Assembly (NCBI GenBank): GCA_977020255.1 | Contig: CDROCS010001491.1 | Coordinates: forward strand, 441,500 to 498,000 | Direction of reading: 5' to 3' | Source: Obrimoposthia wandeli | Lineage: Eukaryota | Length of the DNA: 56,501 nucleotides | Shown: positions 1 to 34,199 of the stretch, piece by piece | How positions within the stretch are numbered: the first letter of the stretch is position 1 | Layout: every line of letters starts with the position of its first letter | Made by a program: the position numbers and the translations under genes | The notes under the pieces: model-generated | Told to the model about the DNA's origin: nothing | What the model saw: the letters and a program-made list of their open reading frames with translations, nothing else | The model's database searches: none

Positions 1-1000
1 ACTAGGAAATTGATAAACTACAAGTATAAGTGAAGGAATGTTAAGTTAAAACCTAGCAATATGCAGCTACACACGTATTTTAATAATAAAATTGATTTCT
101 ATTATCATAAAGGATTGATTCAAAAGGAACAGTTATATCAGAAGATGGTTTAGAGAGACTGTCAGTTAAACAAGGAGATCATAAGAACTAAGTTAGCACT
201 AGCTATTTCAAATCCATACATGGCAGCACCACTATTACCTCTAGGCGAAGGAGTATTTGCTAAAACCATGGGATAAGTACTGTATAGTTATAAGTACAAA
301 AACGTAGTGGTACAGTTGAGAAAAACAGAGCGATGCACAAGCGAATTGCCAGTGACGTATAATTTAAAATCACTCTTTGTAGAACCTATCACGAGAATGA
401 TACTTCCTAAAGACACTCCAACAAAAGAAATCAGCTGCTCCAATTATGGCACCTGAATATCAGATGACGAGTGATCTATGGATAACTTTACCTGACCGTA
501 AGCGAACAGCGACTCCAGAGATAATAAAAATGAGGACACTTAAAGAAAAAATGAACTTAAAAGCGGTAAGGAAAATTGAAAATGCAGGTTTATACAATGA
601 GAAAGATCTAAAAACGGCCTGGAACGAAATAATGTTTCCAGTAATAAGGACCAGAGTACTTATGGAAATTGTACATCGTGCATTACCACCAGGAGCTAGA
701 TATGCGAATTTTGATATGATATTGTTGCCAAATCATTTCAAAGAAGCAGCACATCAGACACTTAGGAAAATGTGGGGAAAATTCCTTGTTTTAGGACAAT
801 TATTTTCAATTATCATATAGGTTTTTATATTATAATTAAATTAGTACAGGTAATTATAGCTCAGGTGTTGTCTACATATAGTTTGTACAGGATAACCGGA
901 ATCACTTGGCAACTTATAATTGGATGTTTTCCATTTTTAGCGAAATATCTAATGTATCATCATCACGAGAATGAGTTACGAGCCATCAAGAAGGAGCAAC
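1..1000 (+). pseudogene. Chuvirus/Monjiviricetes-like fusion glycoprotein (env-like), C-terminal half with TM region; disrupted
   Basis: Frame +1 reads DCQLNKEIIRTKLALAISNPYMAAPLL..GEGVFAKTMG*VLYSY...VQLRKTERCTSELPVTY..KSLFVEPITRMI, frameshifts into ORF 446 (MAPEYQM...GLYNEKDL...IMFP...WGKFLVLG) and ORF 772 (hydrophobic FYIIIKLVQVIIAQV...GITWQLIIGCF). Pattern recognised as chuvirus-type glycoprotein; stops at 31, 151, 274. Confidence 0.8.
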
Positions 1001-1304
1001 ATCAAGCTAGAACTATACTACGAGAACCAAAGAACCGCCATGACGACGACAACGACGATAACGATAGTCCAAGAGACTATACAAAAATACCAAATACAGG
1101 ACATCCAAAGATCCCACTAAAAAACAAGAAGGAGCCAACACCAAACCTATATCCAATGAAGGAATTGAAGGAAGAGAAAGAAATGTTCAAGAGAGGCATT
1201 TTAATGATAAGACGGCCTAGAGTGAACTATAATGAGATTCCACAGAAAAAGATTTTAAAAATAATTCCAGAAGAACTCTGAAGTCTAGGATATCTAACGA
1301 GAAT

Positions 1305-1592
1305 CCGAATGATCCACCACAAGTAGCAGTAACAATGAACGGAAAAGAATATCTTACCGATGTCGATACTGGATCTGCAGTATCAGTACTGAGTAAAGAA
1401 ATCTTGTCATCAAAAGAATTAGAGGAAATATGTCCTAGGAAACAAACATTTGTCTACGTAAAGGGAACAGATGTAGTATCAGAAGGAACACTGAAATGTA
1501 AATTAACTATTGATGGAAGAGCATTGCAGATAAATGCCAAAATATTCACAGATTGTGGTAGTCCAGTCATGATTGGAATGGACGTGATATGA
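1305..1592 (+). pseudogene. Retropepsin-like aspartic protease (copy 1)
   Basis: PPQVAVTMNGKEYLTDVDTGSAVSVLS ... SPVMIGMD: catalytic DTG and distal IIGxD-like motif. Confidence 0.85.
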
Positions 1593-1859
1593 ATGTTTGA
1601 AGGAATAATAATAGTACCAAACAACAAGAGTTCAAAGAACAACAGTTGAGTGAGAGAGCTAAAGATGTTGAGAAGATCTACAGATAATGGAAAGACTACA
1701 CTAGTTTATATATAGGAAACATGTACCGGAACAGGAGACAGGAAGTGTTAGTGAGGTCGTTAATTCATTAAGAAGGAGTAAATGACGAACTACAAGCAAT
1801 GCGTAAGAGGGAATTATAATATGACACATTGAGAAACAAGGATCCTTCTAGATTTGAAA

Positions 1860-2870
1860 AGCACAGACGAAGATCACTAGAACCAAATTTTTCAAAATAA
1901 ATATTATGCAAAATGGCGAGAACTGGTTTACAAATGTTAAACGGAGACACGACTGATGACTCTGGTTTTAAAAAAGTAGTACGTTATATAAATTGTAGAA
2001 TGAATTTTAGAAATTGGGAAGACGTATATAACCCAATGAAACTATATAAATTGAAAGCGCCAACATGGCCATTCCTCCTAAACCTGAGAACTGCAAATGA
2101 ACCAGAAATTCAAACTGGGAAAGCACCTGACTTTGACAATAGTGATCAGATTCCAGAAAGAGAAACAGCCCAAATAACAGGCATGTGATAAAAAATAGTC
2201 GAATTGAAGATATATTCGAAGTAATGCGAGAAATAAACGAATGTGACGAACAATATCGAAAAGTAACCTTTGAAGATTCAAGACTTAAAAAGCTGGCAAA
2301 TAAGGGACTATTTGCTATAAAAAAGGATGGTAAAGAAGTAATTAAATGTCATAAATGCAAAAGAAACGAATTATTGATAGATATACTCTTGAGTTACCTA
2401 AAAAAGGTTTACATCATTTACATACATTTAAAAAACAAAAAGAACCAAAAACAGAATGTATAGTTGAATACCAAATAACACGAAAAGATATTTTGGCTCA
2501 ACAAGACACACTAGTAGTGTCATTCGTGAGAAGATTATATCCAAAAGAATCAGACAGGATCAGAGAATTGGTAGAATTGAAAATAAAAATTACACGGAAT
2601 GGATACGGATCAATTTTTGAATTATTACGAGATAAAAATGACAGTACAATTGAACCAAAGGAGAAAGAGTACATAAATGAATTAGAATACATGCTGGAAG
2701 ATCCGGAATGTGCAGTTTGCATGATCAACAAAGTAGAAGTTGCCTTTTTACCGTGTGGACATGTGAGAACATGTCGGAGATGTGCAAACGAAATGTTAAC
2801 ATGTCCGATTTCTAGAAAGATAATAGATCGACAAGTGAGAAATATTAGATCTCACTATCCAAACAAAGGA
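1860..2870 (+). pseudogene. IAP-like module (BIR, divergent BIR, C-terminal RING) inside the retroelement
   Basis: BIR1: RRRSL..KMARTGL...VR[Y]INC-X16-[Y]-X6-[W]PFL, exact BIR spacing with three Zn ligands each one base change away; BIR2-like: YRKVTF..KLANKGLF..VIKCHKC; RING: CAVCMINKVEVAFLPCGHVRTCRRCANEMLTCPISRKII (IAP-type C3HC4). Confidence 0.82.
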
Positions 2871-2929
2871 AGTGGACCGACAAAATGTAATAATTCGATA
2901 AATACAATATACCATATGGGAAATATAAA

Positions 2930-3030
2930 TGGAGCACAGCGACCAGCAGCTATCATTAGAGTCAATAATTTGAAAATAAAAGCCTTAATTTACACGGGCG
3001 CAGTAACATCGATAGTGAGTGAAGAAGCAC
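2930..3030 (+). pseudogene. Second aspartic protease remnant fused by deletion to the RT-RNase H connection
   Basis: IRVNNLKIKALI[Y]TGAVTSIVSEE (D to Y in DTG) followed directly by AQQALEDLKVRLIKAP. Confidence 0.75.
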
Positions 3031-4680
3031 AACAAGCGTTGGAAGATCTAAAGGTAAGACTGATAAAAGCACCGATATTAGCGTTTCCGGATATAAATCG
3101 ACAATTCATACTAATGACAGATGCAAATAACTATGCTGTAGAAGCAGTATCAGGACAAGAGGATAAGTAAGGAAGAAAACACGTCATCGCATATGCAAGT
3201 ATATGGTTAAATAGAGTAGAAAGAGGATACTCTGTTATCGAAAAGGAATGTCTAGCCATAGTATATTCATGTAGACAGTACAGACACTACTTGCTAGGAC
3301 AAAAAGTATTCCTGTATACAGATCACAAACCACTACAGTTCTTGTATAAACATAGAGACGAGATGAGCCAATTAAACCGATGGTTTCTGAAATTAGCTGA
3401 ATTTAATCTAGAAATCTGATATAGAACCGGAAAGTCGAATGGCAACGCAGATTGTTTGTCGAGATTTGCCAATGTAGATGAAAAAGGAAACATTATTCAA
3501 TAAGAAGGTCAAGGTGAAGTCAATGACCAGGGAGGAGAAGCAAATATACAGACAAATTTGCTGAAAACAGTAAAATAGACAAATAAATCATCAAGGAACA
3601 GAAGGAAGATAAAGAATTGAGTCTAATCAAAGAACTGTTAGTGAAAGAAGATCTAAATGATGAAATGACGAGAAAATACTCGATAAAAGAAGGAATATTG
3701 TATATTGTCAACAAAGTCGGAAAGATAGTAGTAGTAATTCCGAAGTCATTGAGAACGGCAGTGATGATCCAGTATCACGATGGAACACTGGGAGGACATC
3801 TGTCAGGACGAAAGACAATATCGAGAATTAAAGAGAAATACCATTGGGATGGTATGGAAGACGAGATAAAACAACAATTCAAAACCAGAATGCTGAAACA
3901 ATAGCACAAATCCTGGTAGAAGAGATAATATTTCGATATGGAGTACCTAGAAAATTATTAATTGATCAAGGAAAGAATTTCACTGGAGAAGTAATAAAAG
4001 CAGTATCGAAGATATTCGGAATTATGAAGTTACAAACTTCACCATATCACCCACAAACTGACGGTCTAGTAGAAAGGTTTAATAAAACTATCTGTATGAT
4101 GATACAATCTTATTGCTCCGATAAGCAAGATGATTGGGATAAGTATTTACCTTCATATTTATATGCTTACAGGAATTCAGTTCGAGAGGTGACGGGCCAC
4201 ACACCATTATATCTGATGTATCTCAGACAGAACAATATGCCAATGGATCTGGAGTGGACCCAACCAATATCTCAGTACCTAGAAACTGAAGAATACATTG
4301 TCGTCATGAAAGAAAGACTACAAGATTCTTGGACTAATACAGGGTTGAAATTGAAATTCAATCAAGAAAATTACAAGGAACAATACGACAAGAAAGCAAA
4401 ACCACACGAATTTAGAGTCGGAGATCAAGTGATGCTATTCTATCTAGTAATCAAACCAATTATATCGTTTAAACTTCATAGACCATACAAAGGACCATAC
4501 AAGGTGATACAGACAACCTCAACAAATTTGAAAGTAATCAACGAGGAGATCAGGAACAAAGAACCGATGATAGTACATGCGAACCGATGTAAACTGGTAC
4601 CGAATAAAGATAATGCGTCACGATATGAGCTACAATCACAGAAATTGAAGCCGAATACCAATACAATTAAACTTACATGA
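3030..4680 (+). pseudogene. Pol remnant: RNase H, integrase Zn-binding region and truncated integrase core
   Basis: Motifs as above; RT core (YxDD) absent; integrase lacks the segment between EDEIKQ and IQNQNAETIAQ. Confidence 0.9.
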
Positions 4681-8039: not shown

Positions 8040-8600
8040 ATAAACATAGGCATTTGTGAAAATATCTGTTATCACAAGTATATCATTGCGATATCCCGGT
8101 TAAAAATCCAGAAACAAATAACGGGGGATTTCTACGTTACATCTTTAAATGCATCAATTACATATAATCTGATATAGGGAAAAGATTGTCATGCAGCAAA
8201 ATCAAAGACAGTCTGATCTCTCAGATTATAAACTAACATCAAATAATGCAAGTTCAAATTTCTAGTACGATGTTGACTACCTTGATGAAAAATGTGTGTT
8301 GAAACATAGTAACTGTAACATGCATATGCTTGGAAATCGTTGTAAGTATGATTAACACTTGCGCCTTTATTAGCTTTTTCATACAAATCATCAAAAACAA
8401 CAACATTTTATATTATTTTAACATATCTGATCAATTTCCATCAAAACCATCAATGAATTTCACCTGGTTTACAAACACTACCATAATGCCAATAGATTTT
8501 GTCAAATTTATCATAAGCTTGTATTATCTTGTATTATTTGATTTCAAAATGGGTTTTACCACTACCAGATTGTTTTTACATACTTTTTATTAACAAATAC
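8040..8600 (-). pseudogene. Polinton genome-packaging ATPase (A32/FtsK-HerA type), decayed
   Basis: Walker A QSGSGKTHF, Walker B VVVFDDL, then THIFHQGSQHRTRNLNLHYLMLVYNLRDQ and YLFLDF motifs. Confidence 0.88.
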
Positions 8601-8871: not shown

Positions 8872-9326
8872 ATTGAGATAGCTAATAATAATTATAATGG
8901 TTTTGTATATGGAGATGTTAGTCATTTGCTTTACAAACGAGGTAAATAGTGTGTATGTTTAAAAATTGCACAGATTATACGCTTGTTATTTTCAGATCAG
9001 ATGATTATTCAATTTGATTTCTTTAATTATTATTAGGGAATTGAAGTATAATTGATTGTATGGTGCCATTTGGTAGAGAACGTATATATTATCCAACTAA
9101 AATAAATGTTAACTGTATTCAGTCAGTCACAGAAACTGCAAACCTGAGTAAAATAATCAATCTCATCAAATTATCTTAGTTCATGAGTTCAACATGCATG
9201 TTTAAACCAGAAATATTTCCATCAGTTAGATGTCTCAAGTACAATCCTCCACATGTAAATATATTTAGAAGTAATACAGTCATTATTTTCCGATTAACTA
9301 GTTTAGACTATTACCTTAAGATTTAG
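8872..9326 (+). pseudogene. TBP-like protein, Polinton-borne, copy 1
   Basis: DYTLVIFRSG...CIQSVTETANLSKIINLIKL...CMFKPEIFPSVRCLKYNPPHVNIFRSNTVII, alignable by eye to both TBP repeats (TALIFSSGK; IQN...IRL...YEPELFPGL...LIFVSGKVV). Confidence 0.75.
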
Positions 9327-10135
9327 CAAAGGTATGATTTTTCAAGACGGTGTCGACTTTAGATAATGAGATAACTTGTATATTTTTTCGAACTACATTA
9401 GAAAATTGGTCACGCAACGATTAACCAATGAAACATCATAAGAAAATTTGTACTGTATGTTCATTCATTATAAAAATCTATGTATCTAATAAACACACGG
9501 TGGTTAAACAGGGCGAAGATATTATAAATTTTGATAAAACTCCATTGGATAAACCAGTTGTTCGTAATAATGATTAAGATCATATTGTAATTTCTATATG
9601 ATCGATTATTCCACATGTATATATTTGAATTAATTTATATCAGTATTGTGTTTGTCAGAAAGTAGTACGTCATCTTGATTGCATTGCAGCTATTCCGGGA
9701 GAAATTTCTTATATATCAGAGGGACCTAGTATAGGTATCAAGAATCCATTTATTGCCGAATAATATTTAATATGATTAAACTATTATTTAAATAGACACT
9801 CGCCAGATAAATCTGTTGAAACGTTATTACAGTCTAAATAGAATAAAGTCAGTTTAGTAAATATTTCTCTAACACGGGGTAAACATTAAGACTCAACATG
9901 TGAATTTCTAATCAATTTAACATTTTTACAATTAAAAACTGAAGACAGGGTTGTAAATTATCTTGAATATTTATTACCAGATCCAGAATGTGTTGTTTGC
10001 ATGTTAGACATGATTGAAGTAGCATTCTTACCATGTGGACACTTAAACACATGTAATAAATGTTCAGTCGCTTTATTACATGCCTATATTGTAAGAGATT
10101 TATTATACAGGAATGTATATCAGATTTCATGGTAA
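9315..10135 (+). pseudogene. IAP-like gene (BIR + RING), Polinton-borne
   Basis: DLAKV*FFKT..DNEITCIF[F]RTTLENWSRND*PMKHHKKICTVCSFI fits BIR C-X2-C-X16-H-X6-C with the second C mutated; RING DPECVVCMLDMIEVAFLPCGHLNTCNKCSVAL, then frameshifted CLYCKRFI. Confidence 0.85.
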
Positions 10136-10269: not shown

Positions 10270-12285
10270 ATGTCAAGGCATTTGTCTGTACATCGAGAAT
10301 TTGTAAAAAAAGAAACATACACTATCAACTTTTCATTAAATTTTATGAGCAAAGTTGGTTGTATGATTCCTGAAGCAGAGACTGCAGCCAGTAAAGTATG
10401 CGAAAACGAAATATTGATGCAGAGCTGTCGGCGCTTGATGTATCCAAGGTCAAACCTAAAGCTTCATTACATCTACTCTTTCATTTTATTATGGTTTATA
10501 TTATCATAAAAGTCTCCTTATTAAAAAGTATAATGCCATAGCTACTGTTGCTACTCTTGGGAAATTTATTTTATACTCCAAACTTTAGAGAAATATTTAT
10601 CTTTAACTGCATATGCTGAATTCTCTGCAGTTTTTGAGCGGCTCTTTAAAATAATTAATGACATATTTAAATGGCCAATTACACAGTCAGTGTTCCCAGT
10701 TTCGATTAATGATAAGGAGATTTTTCAATATAATTTGTGAAAACTTTCACAGATTTACAAAATACAACATAAATCAACCCATAACTGCATTCGAGAGTGC
10801 ACGTCTTCAAGACTCTAATGAGGTACTTACATTTTGGGATTGTAATTGTCAAAATCTTGTTGAGTCTATGCTTTTTTATATGAAGTTAGACATTTATTTA
10901 TTGGCTGATTTGTTTGAGTTTTTTCCTGTAAAATCTTTAGCAGAAGATGGGCTAGATCCCATGCATTTTTTTAATTTACTTGGTCTTTCATGGGCAACGG
11001 CAATAAAAACTCCTTATATTAATGTTGAGTTATTGCAAGATCCTATGATGTATCAAATGTATGATTATGATATACGCGGTGGAATGACTTTTGTCAACAA
11101 ACATCATGTTGTCAAAAATCAATCCATGGAGATTCTGTACATCAACATAATTAATTTGTATAGGTGGGCGCTTACTCAACCTCTACCACATGCCAACTTT
11201 AAGTGGATGTGTGATGTGGAAGAGTTGAATAAGTTGATGACAGATTTGCCTACTGTTGATACAGTTTCGTCAAATGTCGGCTATTTGGTTGACGTCGATT
11301 TAACAATCCCTCCTAATGTGCATGATTAATTGTATGATCTTCCAGTGCACCTATTCATCAATGTCCACCTAATTTAAAGGTTAAAAAATTATTGTTAACA
11401 CATGAAGACAGGTTGAATTACGTGTTGCATTGGCGGCTTCTTCAATTCTATATAAAGTAAGGAACAAAATTTACTCGAATTAATCGTGCTATAAGCTTTA
11501 GTCAAAACCTTTTGTTTAAAGACTATATTTAGAAAAATTCTAGAAAACGTTATTTGGCCTGTAGCAATTCAATCGACATTTAAAAATCTTTGAAAAATCT
11601 GTAAAGGACTTGCGGAAACGTATTTGTTTACGATTTTGCTATAATGAGTGCAAACTAATAACATATATTACCAAGTACAACTTCAAGCATATTTACCATT
11701 GCAGATTACTTGGTAAATTTTTTTTATTAGGAAAACAGAGTATTGTCACGATCGATTGAGTTATGTAAATCAAACTGTATTAGGTATTTCAAACCCTATA
11801 TTGTATGGGCTCCAATATATTGAATTATATAAATATCGCAATGAATTCAACTGTGAATTCAAACACTGACTCTTTCTTTTTACAATCTAGAAATGTTAGT
11901 TTACAATATCTGTTATTTCTGAAAATGTTTAGGGATAACTTACTTGATACCCATAAATATCCTGTTAATCATCATTTACACTGTAGGGTCAGATTTTGTA
12001 TGATGACTGTATTTTCCTACGCCTTTAATGCTACAGTTTACATACATCTAATAATACATATTCAATGAGAGCAAAGGGTGTGGGAAGAAACAATCTCACC
12101 ATGAGGCCTACCGGAAAGTGTATGATACTGTATGTAATGAAAGCGTTGAGCAAACTAAATTTATTTTAAGACCCAATCAACAGTATTTCCATAAGTCAAC
12201 AAAAATTGTTGTGAGTAGTTATGACGACAAACGCTGTTGGGTAGAAAAGAACGCTGGTCTGGCTTATGGACATTTCCGAATTTAA
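10270..12285 (+). pseudogene. Protein-primed DNA polymerase B (pPolB), decayed
   Basis: YMKLDIYLLADLFE...GLSW...IRGGMTFVNKHH...INLYRWALTQPLP...GYLVDVDL; C-terminal RAKGV...SSYDDKRCWVEKN..LAYGHF. Confidence 0.92.
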
Positions 12286-12551
12286 ACGGTTTTCATTTTT
12301 TTGTTTAGTATTTTAAAATTTTAGATCTTTATGGCACCTTAACTCTAACTTCTTGTTATTTCTATACTTTTTTAGGTTAGGTCTCATCTTTTCTGACAGA
12401 TCTCCTTGTGATATTTAGCTGATTAAATGTATATAAATTTTTTGTCTCATGCCTTTTATTATTATTCATATTTTGACCTTATATTTTTATCTTGAATGTT
12501 TTTTTTAAAAATAAAACGGGTTTAAAAAAAATCATTTATTATTATAACACA

Positions 12552-12918
12552 TTAACCGTTTTGTAACGATAACCATAAAATACATAAATGTCCACAGTTT
12601 CTCGTTGCTGGATCCTGGTATTGTATCATGTTGTAAAATACTCTTCTTTGTCCTTTTTGAACAGTCGAAACAAGCTTATGGGGATAATACGTTGCAAGTA
12701 GATCAAATACATGTATTGTCCACTCTTTAACATAAATAGCTATACAATGTTCTATTGGTACATTCAAAGTGTGAGTATTGATAATGTAATCTCCATGTTG
12801 AAAAATGGAATCATATCCATTGAATTTATCACCCAGTACATTTTCTTTTGATTCTATTACTTGTACTGAACTAAATTAAAATGAATAAATATTAATTATA
12901 AAAAGGATCTTACTTCAT
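12552..12918 (-). CDS. Polinton adenain-like cysteine protease; open after splicing a 43-nt intron (exons 12918-12914 and 12870-12552)
   Basis: MN|SVQVIES...IINT...IEHCIAIY...FD...QYQDPATRNCGHLCILWL (H, D, Q, C catalytic set); intron GTAAG...TTTAG; starts just after the MCP stop. Confidence 0.78.
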
Positions 12919-12919
12919 T

Positions 12920-13330
12920 CTATAATATGACAGTTCTGTTTTCGTTGATTTGTATTTCCCAATCAAATACACCGTAAATAAGCACTGTAGTAGGATTTGA
13001 TAAAGCTGTATTGAATTGAATTTCTAAACGTAAGTTTACATCTTTAGGTTGTTGGCATTGGTTTATGTCAAAGTCTGGCGCTAAAACAAATGTGAAGAAC
13101 GGACAGCTGCTTTTAAACTCAAAGAAATAAATACCATTGTTTATATTTTTTATCTAGTTGACCAATATTTTGAATAATAAATTTCGTATAAGCCAAAGCA
13201 AAAATGTTACTTTCGTAATATGTTTTATAGCTTTTACGATAATTGCTATTTCTTAAAAGTGTTACTGAATCCACATTAAGATTATCAAATTGAGTTACAT
13301 ATGTCGTATAATTTCCTAGAAACTTTGCAG
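12920..13330 (-). pseudogene. Polinton major capsid protein, C-terminal part
   Basis: FLGNYTTYVTQFDNLNVDSVTL...FTFVLAPDFD...NLRLEIQFNTALSNPTTVLIYGVFDWEIQINENRTVIL*. Confidence 0.82.
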
Positions 13331-13397
13331 TTTTTTTAAAATGATGTTAGGATTAGGATTTTAAAAATTTTCAAAGAAATAATTAATTGTTATATAA

Positions 13398-14896
13398 TGT
13401 AATAAATTCTTGAAAGCAAGGTTGAAAATGAAATAAATTTTAAATGGAATTATAAATTAAATAATAAAATTAAGAATTATTTTGGGACCTTGAAAGTTCA
13501 TGTATAGTGTGAGATGTGTATAAAAGTTTAGGGCCCGGGAAATTACAGGCATAAAATGTCAGAAAATACATTTTCAAAGAAAAAGCCAAGAAGATAAATC
13601 AAGAAGAAATTATCCAGTGGTCAACAGAAGAAAATCAAAAGAAAAGAAAATAACAGCCTGGTGGGAAAGAAGCAGCTGTTGATCGAGAAGCACTTACCTG
13701 GAGAGACGATCGAGACAGACATCGATTAACTCTGAGAAGAAGCCAGCCGGCATCCATTTAGCACAGTAAGGGCACTTAGCCTAATTGAATTACTTGATTT
13801 ATAATTTAGGAACTTATATAAAACAGAATTCAAGAGTCATCACACACAAAATTTCTCGAAAAATAATTCTCGGAAAATTCTCTGGAAATTCAAAAATTGA
13901 GAAACTAGCAGACTCCGAAAATCAATTGAACGAGAATAAAAGAAAAATCACCAAGCAGAAACTACCAACGAACGCAAGAAGCCGGAGGTGATTAATTTTC
14001 AGAAACAGAAGGAGATTAATCGGTTAACAAAACCCAGGTAGGAAATCAATCTCCATCGATCAACAGAGCACGATGAACTCAACGGAACCAGCAGTCGAAC
14101 TCAGTGAACCGCCGGACTAGTCGTGTGATCTCGAAGAGAGGCTTCTCGAAAAGAGATCACGGTAAGTTCAGAGTGTGAGCGTGTTGTTGAAGGTTATCAA
14201 AAGATAACGAATTTGAAATAAGGTCATTGGAGAAACAATAATTTAATATAAATTGCAAGTGTCCATATTTGAATTAAAGTTGTCCATATTTTTGAATTGA
14301 AATAATTTGATAAAATCGTCTATATTTTGGAACTGAAATAATCTGATAAAATCGTTTATATTTTTGACTTGAAATAATTTTATAAAATAGTCTATATTTT
14401 ATTTGATAACGTTAAAAGAGTTAACGTTCAGTTAAATTGCCCACATTTTGTACGATAAATCATTAAAAGAATTTAAAGCTTAATTTGAATTTGATAAGAC
14501 AAATTAAAATCGATACGTAAGACATCCCCATTTGTGCGAAGTTGTGAAGAGAAATTAGGACTAGTTGTTGTCAATTTTTAGAAACGTAACTTAGTGTGTT
14601 TTAAAGAATACAGTTTCCTATAATTAGTCAGCGTTGTTTGAACAAAACCCCTAGAATCAAACAAGCACCAGATACTCCATACATTACACGACACTAAGGG
14701 AATTTTTCCAGTGCCGTTTACACAGCTCTTCACACATCTCCACAACAACAACAACAAAACCTTCAGAATAGACATTGAGACAGGTAAGCACAATCTAAGT
14801 AGGCCACAAACAACTGCAAGCACTACTTCTATAGAACTCACGTTGGGGGCCTCCATACGAGGATCTATTTAAGAGTTTCAAATAGAAACCCCAACA
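13398..14896 (+). mobile_element. Solo LTR-like element (family A, copy 1) inserted in the Polinton MCP gene
   Basis: TGTAA...CAACA ends; near-TSD ATAA/ATGA; MCP frame resumes on both sides; shares CTTGAAAGCAAGGTT, AAAATCGATACGT and terminal GAAACCCCAACA with the copy at 26327-29302. Strand is arbitrary (purine-rich strand). Confidence 0.75.
14298..14400 (+). repeat. Short tandem repeat (~36 bp x3) inside the LTR
   Basis: TGAAATAATTTGATAAAATCGTCTATATTTTG repeated with variation. Confidence 0.8.
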
Positions 14897-15600
14897 ATGA
14901 TATTAAAAGGAATTTCCGCAATTTTACGTCACCAAAATTTTGATCCTTATTAAGAGCTTACGTACCCGTACCCAAAGAGTATGTTTTTAAGTTTAGTTTT
15001 TCTAATAAGATACCAAGCATTGTTTTTTTCATTATTATATTATGTGCCATTAAAACAGATTCCTCGGTTTTAACTCTTTGGACATAGTTTCGCATCCAAA
15101 ATATCAAGTCTACGTTTTAGAACGTCTGTGCTTATCAAAAAAAATCATTTATTGCGTTTCAAACGAAGATATACATTGTACATTAACACCAGGAATTTAA
15201 TATTAAGGTTGTCCAAAGACGTTTAGTCTCATAGACCCACACATTTCGTACGCAATCCATTCTTTACGAGTTGCTACCGTTTTATCAAAACCAATGGTTA
15301 CCAAATTAATATTTCGAGTATCAGTACTATAATTCAATAGATTTTCAATCAAAGCTTTATGAGCATGGGAAGAATTACCATCTCGATTAGTTACTATTAT
15401 TTGAACATAAGGCTAAGTATCATTCAAATCTAAATAATTACTATTGGAACCAATTATATTAAATTCTAAATCGGTTAAAGTCGTTCCTGAAATATTAACT
15501 AAAAATATTTCTTCAAAGGAAGCATTATTTACAACTACTTGCGGAAGAGGTTTATCAAATATTGTTCATTCAACTTTCTTATATTTGTTTATATTAATTT
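14897..15600 (-). pseudogene. Polinton major capsid protein, N-terminal part
   Basis: IFDKPLPQVVVNNASFEEIF..LEFNIIGSNSNYLDLNDT...IENLLNYS...LDILDAKL..RVK. Confidence 0.82.
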
Positions 15601-15900
15601 TTTGCTTCTTTTTACGTTTAAATTCTCTATCTTCTTGGCTTTTACTTGATTTACCTTTTCTAATTAAATTAGCAACGCCAGGTAAGACATTATCAAGTTC
15701 ATTAAGTGCAAGCTTCTTAAAAGTTGGTATTAATTTATTATCCTTATATGAAAGGTAGACTTTTTTGAATTTTGATATAAATCGTCCGAGTTTCTTTAAA
15801 AGAGGAAAGACAAATCTACTTAATGTTCTAAGCTAGCCGGATCCATATTGTTTATCGACAAAATATGGTGATTCTCCACATTCTTGGCTTTGACTATAAG
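15600..15900 (-). pseudogene. Polinton core-like protein (QxGxG type), decayed
   Basis: PYFVDKQYGSG*LRTLSRFVFPLLKKLG, located between mCP and MCP. Confidence 0.6.
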
Positions 15901-15906
15901 CTTTAA

Positions 15907-16936
15907 TTATTGCCGGATTCGTAATTTTGTTTTTTTTAAATGTATTATTAAACTTGTCTTGGTTCCGTATGTGAAATCTATTAGTTGTCCGTAATCATCT
16001 CTATTATTTACCTCAAAATTGTTTATAGACAAGAGAGCAACTGGAAGATACGTCGGTTGATCTATACTAATACCGATAACTTCTTTAATGCTAGTTTGAC
16101 TTTGAGATATCCTTATTGTTCTCAAAAGTGGAACTCGTAGTCCTCCTACAAGCGTTGGTTCTATTAAACTAGTATAAATATATAACCGATTAATAGCATT
16201 TAAAAGTTTTGCCCGATTTTTAGCTTTTATGGTTTTTACTGTATGTGTTTCAAAGGTCTTTCCAGATAAACCTAGGTTTTTAGCAAGTTTATCATCAAAG
16301 GAAACCCGTTTTATCTTTACTGTAAAAGTCGTTTTATCATTTTTTTAATGTTACACATTTATTTCAATATTCACTGAATTCCTTCATTATAAATTTGCAT
16401 AAATTCACTTAACTATCTATTTTATAATATTTTTAAAACCTTTTCAGTTCCAGTACATATTTAGATATATTTTCAGGTAACAGCAGTTTGCTACTTTACT
16501 AGGAAAATATCTAACAATTTAGATGAGACAATATCTTGTTTAAAATTACCTATCGCATATTCATTAACAAAACCGAATTGAAGAGCTTCTTTTTATATTC
16601 AAAAGTCCAATGAATAAATTCTTATCGATTTTTAAGTATGACTTTGTTATTTTCCTATAATACTTTCACTTCTTTATCTATACAATTGAAATATAATTTT
16701 CCTTTGCTATAAAACCCAATCATAACATTATTTGCTTCATCATTTTGTAAACGAAATATGCGATTTTTTGGTGATAGTAATTGGAGAATAATAAAAAGAA
16801 AATTCTGTTAAAGCTGCTTCCTATTCTCCTTGTAGATTTATAGGATTTTCCCAATCGATAATAAAGCTACTAACATCATTCTCTGGCTGAGTCTTCAGCA
16901 TCCGTTACTAGGTAAAACCATATACGAAAATTTCAT
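15907..16936 (-). pseudogene. Polinton minor capsid protein (penton), decayed
   Basis: N-terminal YMVLPSN...ENDVSSFIIDWENPINLQGE*EAALTEFSF; C-terminal LYIYTSLIEPTLVGGLRVPLLRTI...PTYLPV...RDDYGQLIDF; ATG overlaps the integrase stop (ATGA). Confidence 0.82.
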
Positions 16937-17510
16937 ATTATATTAGATGCTGATATCCAAGTGGTATCTGAATAACCATTCCATTTAACAAAGTATTGTT
17001 TATGTTTACCATTACCTTAGATTTTAATATTTTTTGAATACGTTTATTTTATATGACTTGTAGTTCTTGCTCGTAAAATTTACCCTGAATGATATTAGTG
17101 TCATCATATTGAATAGTATACATTATTGGATTACTTTTTGGATCAATTTTATTTATACAAAATATTTCATCGCTCCAATTCTGATCAAAAATTTTGATAA
17201 ATGGAGTAGAGCTCATTTTAGAAATTCGAACATATTCGTTTTTCTTATATTTAGTTTTTTTTATATTTTCTTTTTTATTCCTGTCTATCCAAATATCCAT
17301 AGAGTTTCTATTAGTAACATCAACAGGTCTTATTCCCTTGAAACTTCTATGTTCAGAGTGATTATATGCATGTACTATTTTGGGCAAAACTTGGATCCTT
17401 TTTTATTTCCTTCTTTTGTGAAATACTTTTTGATTCAATTTCTTAAAGTACGATTAAATCTTTCTACTACTGCTGCTTTGTACTTTATGTTGTCAGTTTT
17501 ATATTAGGAA
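16933..17510 (-). pseudogene. Polinton integrase C-terminal half with chromodomain
   Basis: KAAVVEKFNRTLRN...LPKIVHAYNHSEHRS..IRPVDV...VRISK...NWSDEIF...IQGKFYEQELQ; chromodomain IQKILK...QYFVKWNGYSDTTWIS. Confidence 0.9.
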
Positions 17511-21526: not shown

Positions 21527-21954
21527 AAGACTTTTTCAAATATCGCTCCATTACAAATTTTTGCAGTTTAAAAGTTACAAGGTTTAAAATTGAGACTTTT
21601 TAAAATTTCACATAATTTAAAAAATATTATATGATTTTAAGTAACCAAAGTCTCCCTTCTAAGAGGGAAGCTATGCATGACCGGGAAGCATCTTTGTTAA
21701 TGAATATATTAAGTATACTTATGTTTATAGTAAATGACAATAAGACTACTATCAATATATATTAAACTTTCTTCTGTATATCTGTAATTTTTCATATAGG
21801 CTTCTGTCTCCCGAACTTATCAATTTTGAAACCTTGAATTTTTATAAATAAAATCCAATAATTGCTTTTCGGAAACTCTTCTTCAGAGAAATTATAAATT
21901 CTTGAGAATAAATTTTCATTGGCTTTAATGAAAGCACTGAAGTTTGAAAGGTTA

Positions 21955-22245
21955 AAAGATTATACTATAGTTATATTTCCATCAGGTATTATTATTACTA
22001 TTATTAATATACTACTATTTAAGCTATTGCATAATTATGAGTTGCAAACAAACATGTTAAAAATATAGAAATTGAATGATTTCAATCTCTAAGTATCCAA
22101 GTAAATATCAACAAAAAAGTTAATTTGTGTAAGGTATCTGTGAAATTGGGAAGAAATTGTATGTTTGAACCAGAATTGTTTCCAGCACTCGGAATTTTAA
22201 AAGGTTTACGACTCAATTGTACAAGACTAGTGGCCCTAATAATTT
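21955..22245 (+). pseudogene. TBP-like protein, copy 2 (partial)
   Basis: KDYTIVIFPSG..CIIMSCK...FQSLSIQVNINKKVNLCKV..GRNCMFEPELFPAL. Confidence 0.78.
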
Positions 22246-25200
22246 ATGTATTTCAAACAACTAATAATTTAGTATTGCCTCCAAAATGTGAATTTCCTCA
22301 TAGTGTTACATATTATAAATTTAATTCAGCTCACACAATGTGGGAAAAACTAAGTTGCACTAATATTAAAGACTATATATGATGTAATATATGCGTCTTG
22401 ATGTATACTCACTTTGTGATGTATATGAGGCTTTTAGACAAAAAGTTAAATCTGGTGATAATCATGAGGCTTTTAATTTCTATACTATTCCGGATCTTAG
22501 TTGATGTAGTGCAGTATAATCATTAACACACAAAGTAGAATTGATGCATGAACCCGAAATGTATAATCTCTTTGAAGCACATATTAGAAGAGGTATGACT
22601 TTTTTCAATAAACATTATTGTAAAACCGATGATAGTAGATCACTTCTCTATATAAATGTAAATAATTTTTACGATTGGGCTTTAAACCAACCTTTACCAC
22701 ATGTGTAATACCTTTCCGTTTACTACTATTCTATGTTTTTGATGGTGCTGAAATATTAAAAATTCCTTGGGCTATTCGGTTTTGACAAGCACCCGTTTTA
22801 AAACAATATATATATTTTAATTCAAACAAGTGGTAACTAGTGTCAATAAATTTGAATATGAATTTTATAAGTTGAAAAATAATTTTATTTACGGTAGAAC
22901 GGTTGAAAATCTTAAGAGGCGGCTTGATATTAGATTATGTAATAATTATAAACGGTTTTAAAAATTAGTTTTGAGTCCTTGGTTTAAATAATTATTTATT
23001 TAAATTTAGTTTTTATGTGGAAACAATAAATATATTTAGATGGGCCTTCCTATATCTGTCAAGATGTACTTGATCTATCTAAATTATGAATGTATAAATG
23101 ACAATATATTGAGCTTGAACGGAAAAGACAAAATTTTAATTGTAGTATTCGAATTGTAGCCATATACACAAATTCTTTTTTCCTTGAGTTTGTGTATATT
23201 AATAAGGATAAATTACTTAAAGAAATGATTAAGAATGGGTACAAGTAATTGTCCTAAAACACATCCCTTGTATTCAGAGAACTTTAAAGCTGTAATTGAA
23301 AATGTTAAAGATGAAAGTGAGGGTACTGATTATAATGAGATGGTTTTCTTAAAACGAAAATGTTTCTCACTTCAAAATAAATCAAAGGCTAAAGGTATTT
23401 CTTTAAAACAAACTAATTTAAGACATCAAGAGTAGCTCAATTGTTATGAAAATGAATAAATTATTAGTGTTAACCAGTCACATATAGCATCGGTTAACCA
23501 TCAGCTTCATACAACATTTACGTCTATAGTTGCTTTAAAATATTTTGATGATAAAATGAGATGGGTTAGTAAGAATAAAAGCCTAACTTATGGTCATTTC
23601 AGTTTAACTTAACAATTTGTAAATAAGATATATATAGATTTTGTTGTATGATTTTATATTTAATGTTGTTGTATATTATCATTTGTGTACATACACATAC
23701 GTTAGTAGTTCATGTAAGTTCAGTTGAAAATAAATAAACTTAATATAGTCACTTTGACATTAAAGGAATGTCCAGAGATATGTTCAAACCTTCAACAATT
23801 AGAGAGGGGGAAAGTCTTGTCAAGCAATACTTATTAAACAATTAGTAGCAATTGGTAAGATTATACGGCGATTTCCCTCACCATTTTTTCTATGTATGTG
23901 ATGAATAATTTGAATAAACGTATCACATATATACATGAATAAAGCGGTCAGTTTTGTAAATAAAAAGTTCAGAAATTTAAAATATATTTGGTCAAAAATG
24001 GTTTTAATTTAGCATATTCGGTTTTGCCATATAATTGGACCAATACAATAATAATTTCAATTTTAAAGTAACTGGTTTACATACTACAATTTTTACTTCA
24101 ACAAACAAATAAGTATAAAATAATAAATATGAAGATCAGATTTTTTTCCTGACCAACTACTTTAGGATAAAAGAGTAAATTTTAAAATATTATAAAACTC
24201 ATTGATTAAAAATTGTTGATTAAAAATCTTCGACAACTTCCACGTGAGATTTTTTATGATATAGAGTCATTTATTTAAATATAGATGAAGCATTTAAAAT
24301 ATCAAACAGTCCATGCTGTATGATTTTCTCTGGTGATAAATGATCTTTCTAGGCATAATTAATAGTTTCTCCCAATTTCAGTCTCTGGAGATCTTCTAAT
24401 CGAAGAACAAATTGAACTATCTCTGAACATTTTGTTTTATCAAAAGTTATTTGACAAAATGATGTGTAAGTAAAAATATTTCTCTGACAATCCAAGATCT
24501 CTTAAACTTTCAGATTATTTTCAATTTAAATACTTTCTAATATGAAGCTGCTACGTCAACTCATATACATAATCAGGTATATGTCTAATTTCAAATGATC
24601 GATTTGACGTAGCTTTGTCGCAATTATTTAACTTATTAACACTGATAATATTTGTTAAATAAAGAAATCTAAGAGATCAGTTTCAAAAAAAGATAATTTC
24701 TGATTACTACGAATATTTATTTCTCTGTATGAAATTCCTCGACTATCTTTTTGTGATTTACTCAAATAACTCTATGTTAATTAATCAAATATTCAGTCAA
24801 ATTCGGTAGAAAATGGAGATTTATTTGAGACCCAGTTTTAAATAATTTTATGATTGATCATTTGATTTATTGTCAAATCATAGTGTGACAATCGTGTCTG
24901 ACTCAATGTCCTCTTCAATATTCCCGAGTTTTGTTTGCTTTGCTGCCTTTCGGATGCATGCTGCTTTCATTTGTGTCTCTAATTTCTATATTATAAATAA
25001 AACACGCTCCAGAACATTTTAAATTATCATTTACATTAAATATATGTTATGTTCAATATTCAAAGTTTTAACACTTAACTGATTTTGGGGTCTTTGAAGA
25101 CTCCAATGGATTTTCAATTGACCATTACACTTGCATACATGTTTGATCAAACTGATTAGATTTTTTCGCGAGAATTAGTTTTTTTCAATGTATACGTAAG

Positions 25201-25997: not shown

Positions 25998-26326
25998 AAG
26001 ACCATTTTCAAATATGGCGCTATATATCTTACCGTTTAAAACAAAAATAAGGTTACCAAAGTCTTCCTTGCGGAGTCTCATAAGAGGGGAGCCCTTCATC
26101 CGAAGACCTGGCAGCACCTTTTGCAAAGAACATATATATTTAGATTACTTTTTATAGTAAAAAGACAAACACACTAAAATCAATATATATTAAACTTTCT
26201 TATATCCTTTAGTAATTCTCTAAATAAGTTTCTGTCTCCCAAATCCTTGAATTTGAACAAATAAAATCTAATATTTGCTTTTAGGAAATTCTTCTTCAGA
26301 GTAATTATATATTCTTTTGAACATAT

Positions 26327-29302: not shown

Positions 29303-29715
29303 CTATAAATTATTTAATTTTTTAATAATTTCTCCATTCCTAAATCTAACAATATGTTCATCAGCTTTAATAAAAGCACTAAAGTTTTCAACTTTGATAT
29401 CCGATTTCATTCCTTTGTAAATAGCATTAATATTATTAATGTCCGTTTGATGGATCCTCAAGATGACATAATCAAACTTGGACTTTCTTGGCATAACATA
29501 GTATTTAAATCCAAAGGCATCTTGAGGAAATTCATTGTATAACTGAAATAAGGTACAGATTCTTTAAATAGGTCTTCTTTTTCTTCTCCATTGAAAATAT
29601 CTTCTAATTCTGTATCATCAGAATCTATCGGAATTGGGTTAACTTTGGTTGTATTTAAATTTTCATTCTTCCTCTTCTTCGTGCTCTTCAAAATCGGGTT
29701 TTGTAAATTGAACAT
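29303..29715 (-). pseudogene. ORF-Y, unknown Polinton-associated protein (5' part; 3' part at ~26130-26326)
   Basis: Two overlapping minus-strand ORFs, continuation beyond the LTR, and a homologue at ~21700-21950. Confidence 0.6.
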
Positions 29716-29838: not shown

Positions 29839-30175
29839 ATGAAAATAGTCAATATAAATTATAAAATTAACTTTAAGGGAAGTGTTAGTCACTTACCTTT
29901 TCGATCAAAGAAACATATACAATATGTTGAAAAGCCAAAGGATCATACTATAGTTATATTTCATCTAGGTATTATTATTATTACTACTATTTAGGCTCAT
30001 GCAGAATTATGGGTTGCAAACAACCAATCAAACATGTTCAAAATATAAAAATTGGATGTATTCAATCTATAAGTATCCTAGTGAATATCAACAAGAAGGT
30101 TTATTTGTATAAGATATCTATGAAAATGGGTAGAAATTGTATGTTTTAACCAGAATTGTTTCCAGCACTTGATAT
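29839..30175 (+). pseudogene. TBP-like protein, copy 3
   Basis: MKIVNINYKINF...KDHTIVIF..G|SCRIMGCK...CIQSISILVNINKKVYLYKI..GRNCMF*PELFPAL; 26-nt GT-AG intron at 29969-29994. Confidence 0.8.
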
Positions 30176-30713
30176 TTTTCATATAATGATATTTTTCTTC
30201 AAATTTTTATCGAAATATATTAATTTGAAAAATAACATACAATAGATAAATTGGAGATTAAATTCAAAAAATTAATAAGACATACTATTTATTGAGACAA
30301 ATCTACCAGTTACAAGCTCGATTTACTACTTTTGTATCATTTAATTTAAACTCGTAACTTCCATTGTATGCCTTTATAAACTTCAATGTAACAAATTCAT
30401 AGTCTGGTCTAACTAAATATCAACTGTTTATCTAAATCGAATGTTCAATAAATATCAATAATTCTATGTATACCCTATAATATTTCAATAATTTACTTAA
30501 TAACTAACGGGTGTATAATTGACATCCGCACATGGAGTTAAAACTCTGACAGTTTGATAGATCATCTTGAAATTTGAAACACGTTAAAAATTATAGATAT
30601 TAAAAAAATGCTTTAACCAATCATTTTCATCAACTTATATATTTATCACATAAAATGGAGAATTTAAATGTACAACAAAGATATGTTATAATAAAATACT
30701 TGATGAATCATTA

Positions 30714-31060: not shown

Positions 31061-31066
31061 GCCCTT

Positions 31067-31320
31067 ATGTTTGATATAGTTAAAGGAAAAGTCAATCTCA
31101 GTAAACATAAGTCGAAAGTTACAAAACGCAAGAAAGTATTACTTGATATTGTTAATACAAAATGTGGTTCTGGTCGAAGGAAAATAGTATTACGTCAAAA
31201 AGGAGGATTTATTGGTGCACTTTTACCGATAGTTGCAACTTTAATCGGTCCCTACTTGCTAAAGCTATTGGTTAAAGTGTATGGGAAACAACATTACCTA
31301 ATTTTGATTTTAAAATATAA
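31067..31320 (+). pseudogene. Polinton basic core-like protein with putative adenain cleavage site (5'-truncated)
   Basis: KRKKVLL...RRKIVLRQKGGFIGALLPIVATLIG. Confidence 0.7.
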
Positions 31321-31328
31321 TGTTGTAA

Positions 31329-31520
31329 TGGAAACGAGATGATACGATCCCGAAGACCGAGTTGGGTACAGCGGAGCTCTATCATCAAACACAAAGTTGA
31401 GTCAAAAGAAAACTCAATCATGACTGAGCAATCAATTGGCGTACAGTCTCAACAGACCGATGCGAAAAAGGTTCCTGACACGATCATACAAGACTAGTGG
31501 TCGTAATAATTTATAAAACA
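31329..31520 (+). pseudogene. Polinton integrase N-terminal fragment
   Basis: YDPEDRVGYSG...KTQS*LSNQLAYSLNRPMRKRF (YYDP...WL.....YTLH.P.RK.F pattern). Confidence 0.78.
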
Positions 31521-32420
31521 AAATGGAAAGACTTTTAATTTCTGTGACAAGGTTAGCGATGTCTTATATGACGGAGCACTTGTCACCGTTTTTCCTAAAA
31601 TGTTTGGTGTTAATTGTAGTCTTAATGATCGTTTTATGAATATCAATACAAATTTACTTAATTGTTTTAAAGTTATTAAACTTTTTCAAGATGCCCAAAT
31701 ATAAAACTTAGTTGAGAAAATTAACTCAATATATGGAACCCGAAAATTATATTTTAATCGTTTAGGTACATAATTTAACCTTGATGATAGGTTAGGTGAT
31801 GTCCTGTTTGATAGCGCCTTAATTAGTGGTTCTCTACCACCACCATCATGTAAACTTTATAACTATTGTACTAATAATTGTCATGATTTAAATTGTCATG
31901 ATGTAATGAAAAAAAATTATAAGTTTAAAATCGGGTACATATGTCCCTCATGTGATATATTGTTCACAAACATAAAATATTTAGATTTTTATTCAAATCA
32001 TAAAAATCACTTAACTTACTTTAATACCAAGAAATCTAATTATAAACGTAAATCATCATCATCATCATCACTTCCAAGTAATAAAGTTATAAAACTAGAA
32101 ACAATTATTAATATAATACTAGTTGATAATCTGGATAATAGTTTTAATTTCAAAATAGTTGATAGTTGGTAACGTCCTAATAGTCTAACATTTCCTCCTA
32201 ATTTTGATTTCACTACATTTTTAAATGATGATGATGAATTAGATAAGTATTAAAATGAATCTCTATATTTTAATGATTTACTTTATACACATGAAAAGCC
32301 ATTTGTTGATGAATTATATAATGATTTTGTAGCAACTGTAGACTTTGAAGCAATATCGAAAACTCAAATATGTAGTGTACTTCAAGATAATCTTATTTTG
32401 ATACTACATCTAACCAGAAT

Positions 32421-34135
32421 ATGCTAAAACTGGTTATTAATAATGATATGAAAAATGATTTATTAAATAAAATTAATGCATTTGGGCCTTGTAAAATCCA
32501 ATTTGGTATTAAAGCTCAATTTGTAAACATAGAAAACCAATTTAAAACATGGCATATTAGTTGTAAGGCTGCAGTTTTCGATGATGAGTTTATTGTTATT
32601 AGAACAGACAAGTTAAATAATTGTATTGAAAAATACTCGGAATTGAGTAGTGGTTGGTCAATCTATAAAATATTACAAATTTCTTTTAAATTAACTAAAT
32701 TATCCAGTGTTTCGGGTTCTTCATATATACCATCACCACATAAATTAATAAATAAAATGACATTAATTAATGTAAAAAAACAGCGATAATAAATGTTTAC
32801 TCTATGCTATGCTATCCTTTAAAATATAATGAAGTTCAAAATAGAGATCGAACATGTTCTTATGATCAATATTGAAATGATTTTAAATGTCAGCCAAGTC
32901 CTATGCCCTTAGCCTCAATACCTCAATTTGAATGTGATAACAAAATAGCAGTTACAGTTGTTAAGTATTCTGAAATTAAAAGTAAATACCTGATTAAAGA
33001 TGTGGTGAAAAATCCTGATGTTAGTATAATTTACCGAACAAAACTACGGGAATGTAATCAAATTGTTAATTTACCTTTGTTAGAAAACCGTAACACTTAT
33101 CATTATTGTGGTGTTCCTAATTTAAATAGATTATTTAAATGTCATAGTTATGGTTTATGCCTTTACTGGTGTCCGAAATGTCTTTTTGGTTTTCAAACTG
33201 TGGCTGCTTATGATAAACATAGAATCCATTGTAATTTTAATACTAAATCTTTATTCACTATGCTGGATAATAAATATTGTGAATTCACAGATTGGTTAAA
33301 GTCAGTTCAACCTCCTTTTGTAGTTTACGCTGATTTTGAAAGTATTTTAGAACCTGATGTGACTGTTAAACATATACATACTCCCATTTCAGTTGGAATG
33401 TTGTTGAAAAATAATGTTACTGACACAATATAATACTTTTCGTATTTCGGTTTAGATTGTGCTACCAACTTTATTGATAAATTAACGGAAATTCTTAATG
33501 AAATTGTTGCACATTTTTGGAGAAATAATGTGAATGCACGTCTTAAAATGACAAATGAAAATCAAGTAGCTTTTCAAGCGAGTCGCACATGTTACCTTTG
33601 TTATAAAATCCCTAGAAATTTAGTACGTGATCATGATCATATTTCAGGTGCATTCTTGGGTGCAGCATGTAATAAATGTAATTTATCTCGTAGATTCGGT
33701 AAGAGACCTATGTTACCAGTACTTTTTCACAACTTAATGGGTTATGATATTCATCATATTTTAAAATTTGCAAAATTAAAAGAAAAAAGTTATTCAATCA
33801 TACTCAAATCTAGTGAAAGATTCATGGCTCTCAAAATAGAATTATCAACTGGAACATTGAAATTTTTAGATTCATATCTTTTTACAACAACTAGTCTTGA
33901 AATATTGGTTAGTTATCTTTCAAGTTCACCGTATACAACAAGATATTTTAGTACTGATTTGATATCTAGTAAAGGTGTTTTTCCCTACGAATATATTTCC
34001 AGTGAATCTAAGTTGTATGAAGATAGATTACCTCCAAAATGTGAATTTCTTGATAGTGTTACAGATGATAAATATAATTCAGCTCACACAATGTGGAAAT
34101 AACTAAGTTGCACTAATATTAAAGACTATATGATG
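32421..34135 (+). pseudogene. pPolB N-terminal/exonuclease region with endonuclease-VII-like insert
   Basis: SGW..., CPKCLFGF, PFVVYADFESIL, CYLCY...VRDHDHISGAFLGAACNKCNL, VLFHNLMGYDIH, KFLDSYLF, KGVFPYEYI. Confidence 0.93.
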
Positions 34136-34199
34136 GAATATAAACTGAATATATACAAAATACATTTTGTTTACAAGTCAATTTATTGTAAACGATAGT

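Follow-up and report, generated by a model that had tools for sequence, protein, structure and literature searches.

Decayed copies of a compact TBP-like gene of Polintons, and a variant TATA box that its product may read

Polintons have no RNA polymerase of their own, and the locus described here raises the question of whether some of them carry their own TATA-binding protein (TBP), and for what; the answer bears on the timing of Polinton capsid genes and on whether Polintons run a real virus life cycle. The locus is a stretch of 56,501 nucleotides (hereafter the window) in a 1.35-Gb eukaryote assembly (G000:C1491:441500-498000). It is AT-rich and crowded with dead mobile elements, including several Polinton remnants within 8-35 kb and another at 55.7 kb. 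An earlier note on this DNA had described three stretches for a two-repeat TBP-like protein of ~150 aa. Three such stretches, mutually related and all on the plus strand, are present at those places according to Pfam and a family profile, with the motifs named in the note at 8976-9002, 9114-9128 and 9201-9224 (copy 1), 21961-21987 and 22164-22190 (copy 2), and 29839-29865, 29944-29970 and 30144-30170 (copy 3):

8872..9326, plus strand: TBP-like copy 1, whole gene spanned, broken
8872..9000, plus strand: exon 1 of copy 1 (N-lobe), with a frameshift and a stop
9001..9036, plus strand: short intron remnant of copy 1 at a conserved site, acceptor kept, canonical donor absent
9037..9326, plus strand: exon 2 of copy 1 (end of the N-lobe and whole C-lobe), one in-frame stop; Pfam TBP E 0.004, family profile 75.7 bits
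21944..22198, plus strand: TBP-like copy 2, both ends missing; the intron keeps its donor, and its acceptor is degenerate
29839..30178, plus strand: TBP-like copy 3; exon 1 from the ATG at 29839-29968, GT-AG intron 29969-29994, exon 2 with a stop

All three copies are decayed, and none (0/3) is an open gene. Pfam TBP matches each at E 0.003-0.008 (16.5-17.8 bits, under the cut-off of 22.9), and the family profile scores 75.7 bits for copy 1, 38.7 for copy 2 and 61.4+20.7 for copy 3, the other window domains that it printed all lying below 0 bits; both TBP half-domains are genuine. In copies 2 and 3, which are 80% identical, the match ends directly past the stirrup motif, with the last ~45 codons missing, and in copy 2 the beginning of exon 1 is gone as well. 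A candidate fourth copy near 18060-18090 was rejected, being a 30-nt blastn match with no family-profile match. As a joint statement, it is probable that a conserved Polinton gene, coding for a small TBP homologue of two lobes, left these stretches as dead copies and that the homologue serves the element in promoter recognition.

Better-preserved copies are many in the same genome, where the search gave at least 150 scored matches from 24,289 first-look candidates, which does not give the number of copies. The unbroken exon-2 frames (five of five) exceed the Pfam PF00352 cut-off (25.5-48.9 bits vs 22.9), as do three of three further unbroken natural frames (56.5-65.2 bits). The homologue search with the broken copy 1 as query returned no candidate; with an unbroken exon-2 frame, 58 of 59 candidates were relatives, mostly of 144-159 aa and all with PF00352. 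A profile from 47 exon-2 relatives gave 64 cluster representatives at E<=1e-30, and its best 150 matches were mostly family members, at least six being, by eye, ordinary TBPs. For the natural database homologue P0005, AlphaFold2 predicts a structure with pLDDT 94.7; at E<=0.001 Foldseek counts 44 PDB matches to this model, and each of the 38 listed is a TBP entry. By VIA, 148-149/151 residues of the model lie over yeast TBP 66-240 (Z 13.5, rmsd 2.5; next unrelated fold, Z 6.8), at an identity to solved TBPs of 24-29%, and the predicted model has the two pseudo-symmetric lobes and ten-stranded saddle of the TBP family. The TBP assignment of the earlier note is thereby borne out: natural copies pass Pfam, and the homologue model covers the whole TBP core. 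In 14 of 19 natural copies examined, one and the same glycine codon is split by a 35-40-nt GT-AG intron, whose length differs among near-identical copies while the exons remain open; the five intronless copies (5/19) all belong to one family. The host has several TBP-family loci (L013-L018; G000:C238, C968, C60 and C1092), among them a head-to-head pair and intronless divergent paralogues. Its TFIIB-family matches are exon-sized pieces.

Complete elements elsewhere in the same genome, bounded by TIRs and target duplications, establish the gene as a Polinton gene. Around ten young copies the gene order is TBP-(IAP)-ATPase-small basic gene-integrase-minor capsid-pX-major capsid-protease-pPolB, in elements of about 15-16 kb that share 95-99% identity inside each of two families. 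Six of the ten young copies fetched have both termini and an identical 6-bp target duplication (one left end among the six does not begin with AG, as Polinton termini otherwise do), three have one end only, and one has none. The TIR-bounded setting considered in the earlier note thus holds for these six young copies but not for the window copies, around which no TIR pair was found. There are at least four TBP-bearing Polinton families in the genome, and across families pPolB is convergent with, head-to-head with or co-oriented with TBP, lying 7.7-8.3 kb away in complete co-oriented elements. Among metagenomes, 133 stretches encode a TBP relative, and 80 were kept; a Polinton core gene is found in 40 of the 80 (27/35 of those >=3 kb), among them the ATPase at 27 loci and pPolB at eight. 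At locus L089, pPolB (PF03175) and an RVE integrase (PF00665) exceed their Pfam cut-offs, and the same genes lie beside TBP in genome copies. The ATPase passes the Pox_A32 cut-off (A32-like). The ORFs called capsid, pX and protease keep a conserved order but have no Pfam match, and their names, given after Polinton motifs and gene order, are provisional. The TBP gene often adjoins an IAP host-control gene. Cargo of TBP-bearing Polintons is varied, including a ubiquitin-conjugating enzyme, KilA-N and a PLA2-like domain, and is encoded at:

L089, 222-719: cargo gene
L089, 9591-10055: cargo gene
L147, 7142-8002: cargo gene
L147, 9086-9487: cargo gene

The cargo also includes a conserved gene, u3 (~150 aa), which has no Pfam match and has an acidic N-terminal motif that presumably resembles that of DEDD exonucleases.

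In the window, the TBP-like copies had been described as lying upstream of, and co-oriented with, pPolB. The neighbouring remnants are:

8093..8569, minus strand: packaging ATPase remnant, head-to-head with copy 1 (tblastn E 3e-29)
9320..10135, plus strand: decayed IAP gene (BIR + RING), native downstream neighbour of copy 1 (tblastn)
10832..12282, plus strand: remnant of the C-terminal part of pPolB, from another Polinton family (C706 type)
12555..17485, minus strand: what is left of five genes of the C706-type element (integrase, minor capsid, pX-like, major capsid, protease-like)
22199..23609, plus strand: 49-nt integrase remnant, then middle and end of pPolB; deletion junctions; repeat family D16
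31064..34180, plus strand: small basic gene, integrase start and pPolB remnants after copy 3

The window IAP has 67-70% DNA identity to the IAP regions of C526, C46, C1465 and C2669, and BIR/RING Pfam matches are found on genome copies of this gene. Past the IAP, the pPolB piece runs colinear with the C706-type family at 79% identity (79-84% over 11190-17484), a family whose major capsid remnant in the window is interrupted at ~13340-14895. This family has TBP and pPolB on opposite strands, and its TBP gene shares only 59% identity with copy 1. Copies 2 and 3 were joined to pPolB by internal deletions, since integrase remnants lie between. The reported arrangement is therefore physically present in the window but does not represent a conserved neighbourhood: the pPolB link is incidental, arising from nesting for copy 1 and from deletion for copies 2 and 3, and a conserved TBP-pPolB adjacency is ruled out by gene order in genome copies and metagenome loci. 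The commonest core neighbour of the TBP gene is the packaging ATPase.

Two other features of these elements are recorded here. The pPolBs at 33434-34102 of the window and in L089 and L147 contain an Endonuclease_7 (HNH-like) insert; the available text of a nematode Polinton preprint (10.1101/2023.08.22.554363) describes an HNH domain as found only in the pPolB2 of oomycetes and nematodes, and the inserts may widen this range. A conserved uncharacterised gene, UP, often duplicated, is found on the minus strand of the window at 21795-21929 and 29345-29515 and at 1253-1822 of L089, and flanks TBP in 22 of the 80 metagenome loci. In an Atlas search UP gave leads only (all <0.9), to NCLDV clusters, one with 12% Pox_I3, and on these leads it is perhaps a single-stranded DNA-binding protein.

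What the protein has kept and what it has changed was assessed in 106 full-length homologues of 199 examined, with Arabidopsis residue numbers, partly from the accessible text of PMC10005294. Three of the canonical four intercalating Phe are kept (equivalents of F74, 105/106; F148, 105/106; F165, 106/106); the column equivalent to F57, a position set by internal symmetry, has no Phe among its five commonest residues. Both stirrup glutamates that contact TFIIB are kept (E144, 100/106; E146, 104/106), as are P149 (94/106) and the first Asn (N27), all within 94-106/106. Of the residues that the earlier note had singled out for checking, both glutamates and three Phe thus survive, and the fourth Phe is lost. 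In the saddle, V29 is replaced by N (98/106), V80 by R (105/106), T82 by M (106/106), N117 by S/T (106/106) and L163 by N (106/106), N-lobe residues being mapped by motifs, aligned range and internal symmetry rather than by residue-level superposition. The N-lobe spacers have 38 and 30 (median) residues vs 47 and 42 in host TBP (~9+12 shorter), and the P0005 model is without H2 and most of H1, showing no helix from residue 51 to residue 64; the N-lobe regulatory helix H2, with its basic patch, is thus predicted to be missing from the protein. In cellular TBP the C-lobe glutamates bind TFIIB and the H2 basic cluster of the N-lobe binds TFIIA/TAF1/Mot1/Brf, and in known viral TBPs the TFIIB site is diverged, mostly with an accompanying viral TFIIB (Ravarani et al., PMC7221094, in the text available). 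Among the L089 and L147 element proteins scanned there is no TFIIB or RNA polymerase gene.

A candidate target for such a protein was first noticed on reading upstream of metagenome genes, as the hexamer ATAAAC. Within -90..-9 of the ATG (near-duplicates removed; expectation by dinucleotide shuffles), it stands ahead of 22/23 ATPase, 10/10 major capsid, 9/15 integrase and 6/9 minor capsid genes, and of 5/8 small, 5/8 u3, 3/5 protease and 1/6 pX genes. Taking packaging, virion and integrase genes together, ATAAAC is present in 61 of 84 cases vs 5.8 in shuffles, and its reverse complement in none, counts that are not independent because the elements are related. The hexamer is preceded by T/C in 58/61 (by A in 1/61) and followed by A/G in 61/61, which gives YATAAACR. 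The same windows contain ATAAAC in 66/92 cases vs ATAAAA in 11/92 and ATAAAT in 18/92, and 17 of 22 ATPase sites lie 31-49 nt before the ATG. For the TBP genes themselves, ATAAAC is not enriched (6/57; shuffle mean 2.9, max 8), and the canonical TATAWAWR is found in 22/57 vs 4.4 in shuffles; among genome TBP copies of four families, 18/19 have a canonical TATA and 0/19 the box (130 nt scanned). Each of seven cassettes has 6-11 sense boxes and no antisense box, and there are none inside three pPolB genes. Where boxes overlap coding sequence, Ile-Asn is coded ATA-AAC in 27/39 upstream-gene tails vs 19/208 bodies (related sequences, so that the P value overstates the significance); a YKQ/H codon test (21/22 vs 1/2) was uninformative. 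The window's own C706-type remnant has four boxes:

16997..17004, minus strand: YATAAACR box that precedes the minor capsid gene and lies within the integrase tail
16020..16027, minus strand: YATAAACR box that precedes the pX-like gene and lies within the minor capsid tail
15586..15593, minus strand: YATAAACR box just ahead of the major capsid gene
13138..13145, minus strand: YATAAACR box late in the major capsid gene, upstream of the protease-like gene

The gene split by the box is not purely early/late: ATAAAC is also found ahead of 3/20 UP genes and 1/6 pPolB calls, the box precedes an IAP in C98, and five of six pX genes have no box within 90 nt. Two distant, partial elements with no detectable TBP show no enrichment (2 sense/4 antisense vs 3.1 expected; 1/0 vs 1.7), a weak control in which TBP absence covers the available part only. 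No close TBP-less animal Polinton was obtained as a control from IMG/VR scans, in which single MCP and ATPase queries and an MCP alignment gave no locus, a TBP alignment gave one locus with a giant-virus-like TBP, an ATPase alignment gave one distant match, and a pPolB alignment gave two distant elements.

From sequence, the predicted model and analogy, the protein is probably the element's own promoter-recognition factor, such that host TBP would turn on viral TBP and viral TBP would read the box. Host TBP/TFIID would transcribe the viral TBP gene first, from its canonical TATA promoter. Viral TBP would then bind YATAAACR through its more polar saddle, with the altered N-lobe turned towards the C in position 7 of the box; the two kept stirrup glutamates would recruit host TFIIB and RNA polymerase II, and loss of the basic N-lobe helix might allow escape from Mot1/TAF1/Brf1-type control. 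The outcome would be a one-protein early-to-late switch and a second gene wave. The box differs from TATAWAWR at position 7, and the changes in the protein are mostly in the N-lobe, which in TBP co-crystal structures faces the position-7 end. The variant box and the pattern of kept and changed residues thus argue for the proposal in the earlier note that the element carries its own basal factor. The fuller reading is finely balanced between holding and failing: a one-protein cascade in a widespread Polinton lineage, in which a trimmed 150-residue TBP, its saddle re-tuned to YATAAACR, would redirect host TFIIB and Pol II to packaging and capsid genes, as a convergent, minimal counterpart of the herpesvirus late complex. 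To our knowledge, no two-lobed TBP design is smaller than these 150 residues.

The main rival is that host TBP or a paralogue reads the box, and that viral TBP acts otherwise, e.g., by binding the termini or repressing early promoters. We consider this unlikely, although a host factor could read the box because YATAAACR remains close to TATA and crystals of host TBP with a C(-25) variant, having C at position 7, are on record (PDB 1qn3, by its title); the several TBP-family loci of the host and the want of a proper TBP-less control also favor it. It fits poorly with the constancy of C at position 7 (61/61 sites, by definition of the top hexamer; ATAAAA and ATAAAT are far rarer), with the canonical box of the TBP gene itself, and with saddle residues that are changed and fixed across the family. 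Improbable, and more so than host reading, is that viral TBP serves as a decoy or in host shutoff, sequestering TFIIB or occluding the host's TATA boxes, and does not activate viral genes: the kept TFIIB glutamates, the lost N-lobe regulatory surface and the IAP gene often alongside would suit such a role, but it has no need for a fixed polar saddle, three Phe and the position-1 Pro, and leaves unexplained a box before almost every other gene except TBP's own. We give very little credence to the motif being a Forkhead site or a polyadenylation signal unrelated to viral TBP. ATAAACA fits the Forkhead consensus RYAAAYA and occurs in 54/92 windows, but GTAAACA occurs in 2/92, the reverse orientation in 0/92 and ATAAACG in 14/92; the base before the hexamer, nearly always T/C, is not that of AATAAA; and the position of most ATPase sites shortly before the ATG argues against both. 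Negligible in probability is passive cargo, i.e., a recently captured host TBP fragment or pseudogene, for although the window copies are broken and five of six close pairs within young families have dN/dS of 0.67-1.46, dN/dS between families is 0.25-0.36 for most unsaturated pairs, metagenome pairs have a median of 0.34 (n=173; lowest six 0.10-0.13), 63 of 80 metagenome loci have an unbroken single ORF, and the proteins are conserved across distant elements and occupy one side of the tree described below.

Judged by these ratios, the TBP gene is under purifying selection between element families, and values around 1 within young families are as expected of inserted copies drifting. The phylogeny against host and NCLDV TBPs proposed in the earlier note was built from 87 columns of the C-lobe only, with 46 of the 54 rows intended for it (eight had no anchoring motif, and one row is duplicated). 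It places Polinton-type proteins on one side of a branch, with host, other cellular and NCLDV-like TBPs on the other (support 100/99); the ingroup was picked by similarity, there were eight outgroups, and a donor is not nameable from this tree. On this sequence comparison, the gene is not a recent capture from the present host. The divergent members L140, L147, P0183, P0199 and P0145 have longer N-lobes, by eye with H1/H2-like segments, which suggests that viral TBP shrank stepwise.

Compared with cellular TBP (PF00352), the Polinton protein is alike in its two-lobed saddle over the whole core, three of four Phe, Glu pair, position-1 Pro and first Asn; it differs in length (~150 vs 180 residues), in an N-lobe that in the model lacks H2 and most of H1, in the lost Phe, and in the five changed and fixed saddle positions. 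Among viral systems, the beta/gamma-herpesvirus late TBP mimics KSHV ORF24 and EBV BcRF1 have a TBP fold with a polar, Asn-rich saddle and a variant TATA box before structural genes, TATTWAA for ORF24 (PMC12529657, in the text available). ORF24 itself is a large multidomain protein in a six-protein complex, with direct Pol II binding, four Phe and no TFIIB glutamates, whereas the Polinton protein is a bare ~150-aa core in which the glutamates are retained; in the elements examined, nothing recognisable as a partner factor for it was found. By analogy, it would work like the herpesvirus late TBP mimics, yet is not a member of that group. Nucleocytoviricota likewise encode two-lobed TBPs (BFVD matches to E 1.5e-8), most with their own co-evolving TFIIB and diverged adapter residues according to the accessible text of PMC7221094, whereas Polinton TBP keeps host-type glutamates and forms a separate C-lobe branch. 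The elements themselves resemble Polintons/Mavericks/adintoviruses in pPolB, RVE integrase, A32-like ATPase, capsid-type genes, TIRs and a 6-bp TSD.

In the literature, Starrett et al. (2021; PMC8502044) have a 'TBP' gene label in the legend to Figure 5, on MELD viruses whose PolB is adintovirus-like. The accessible text of that paper (preprint 10.1101/697771) contains neither a TBP analysis nor a promoter box, and the text of its supplement and the text extracted from the adintovirus maps have no TBP label. By term search, the available texts of PMC11161782, PMC11131425, PMC7221094, 10.64898/2026.10.13.758929, 10.64898/2026.06.19.733378 and 10.1101/2023.08.22.554363 mention no Polinton TBP. 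The legend label is the only printed trace found in the openly available papers and preprint texts searched, so that the earlier note, which knew of no TBP-like gene among described Polinton genes, needs a caveat on this point. The Polinton TBP gene is genuine and conserved, has scarcely been described, and comes with a strong promoter signal that matches it; its function is inferred.

A self-encoded TBP with a matching box would be a concrete switch, consisting of one small protein and an 8-bp site. If this is true, the protein would be a TBP of naturally altered specificity that lacks the Mot1/TAF1/Brf surface, could serve to dissect how the pre-initiation complex assembles, and would offer an orthogonal promoter system; the cascade, if true, would be direct evidence of a regulated viral gene programme in these 'transposons'.

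The rest of the window holds other elements. At 401-4680 (plus strand) is an LTR retroelement remnant in which a Monjiviricetes-type fusion glycoprotein gene precedes the aspartyl protease; a BIR/RING (IAP) piece within its pol resembles the Polinton IAP, and an exchange of cargo between the two classes is possible. The repeat inserted in the major capsid remnant (13340-14895) has inverted partial copies at 26311-26471, 29236-29351 and 30707-31061, and a tandem array of ~21 units of 56-87 nt, mostly 75, occupies 26938-28439. A 504-codon open frame with no Pfam match lies between Polinton remnants at 19454-20968 (plus strand), and a host axonemal dynein light chain exon (Pfam E 7e-34) is found at 52483-52881 on the minus strand.
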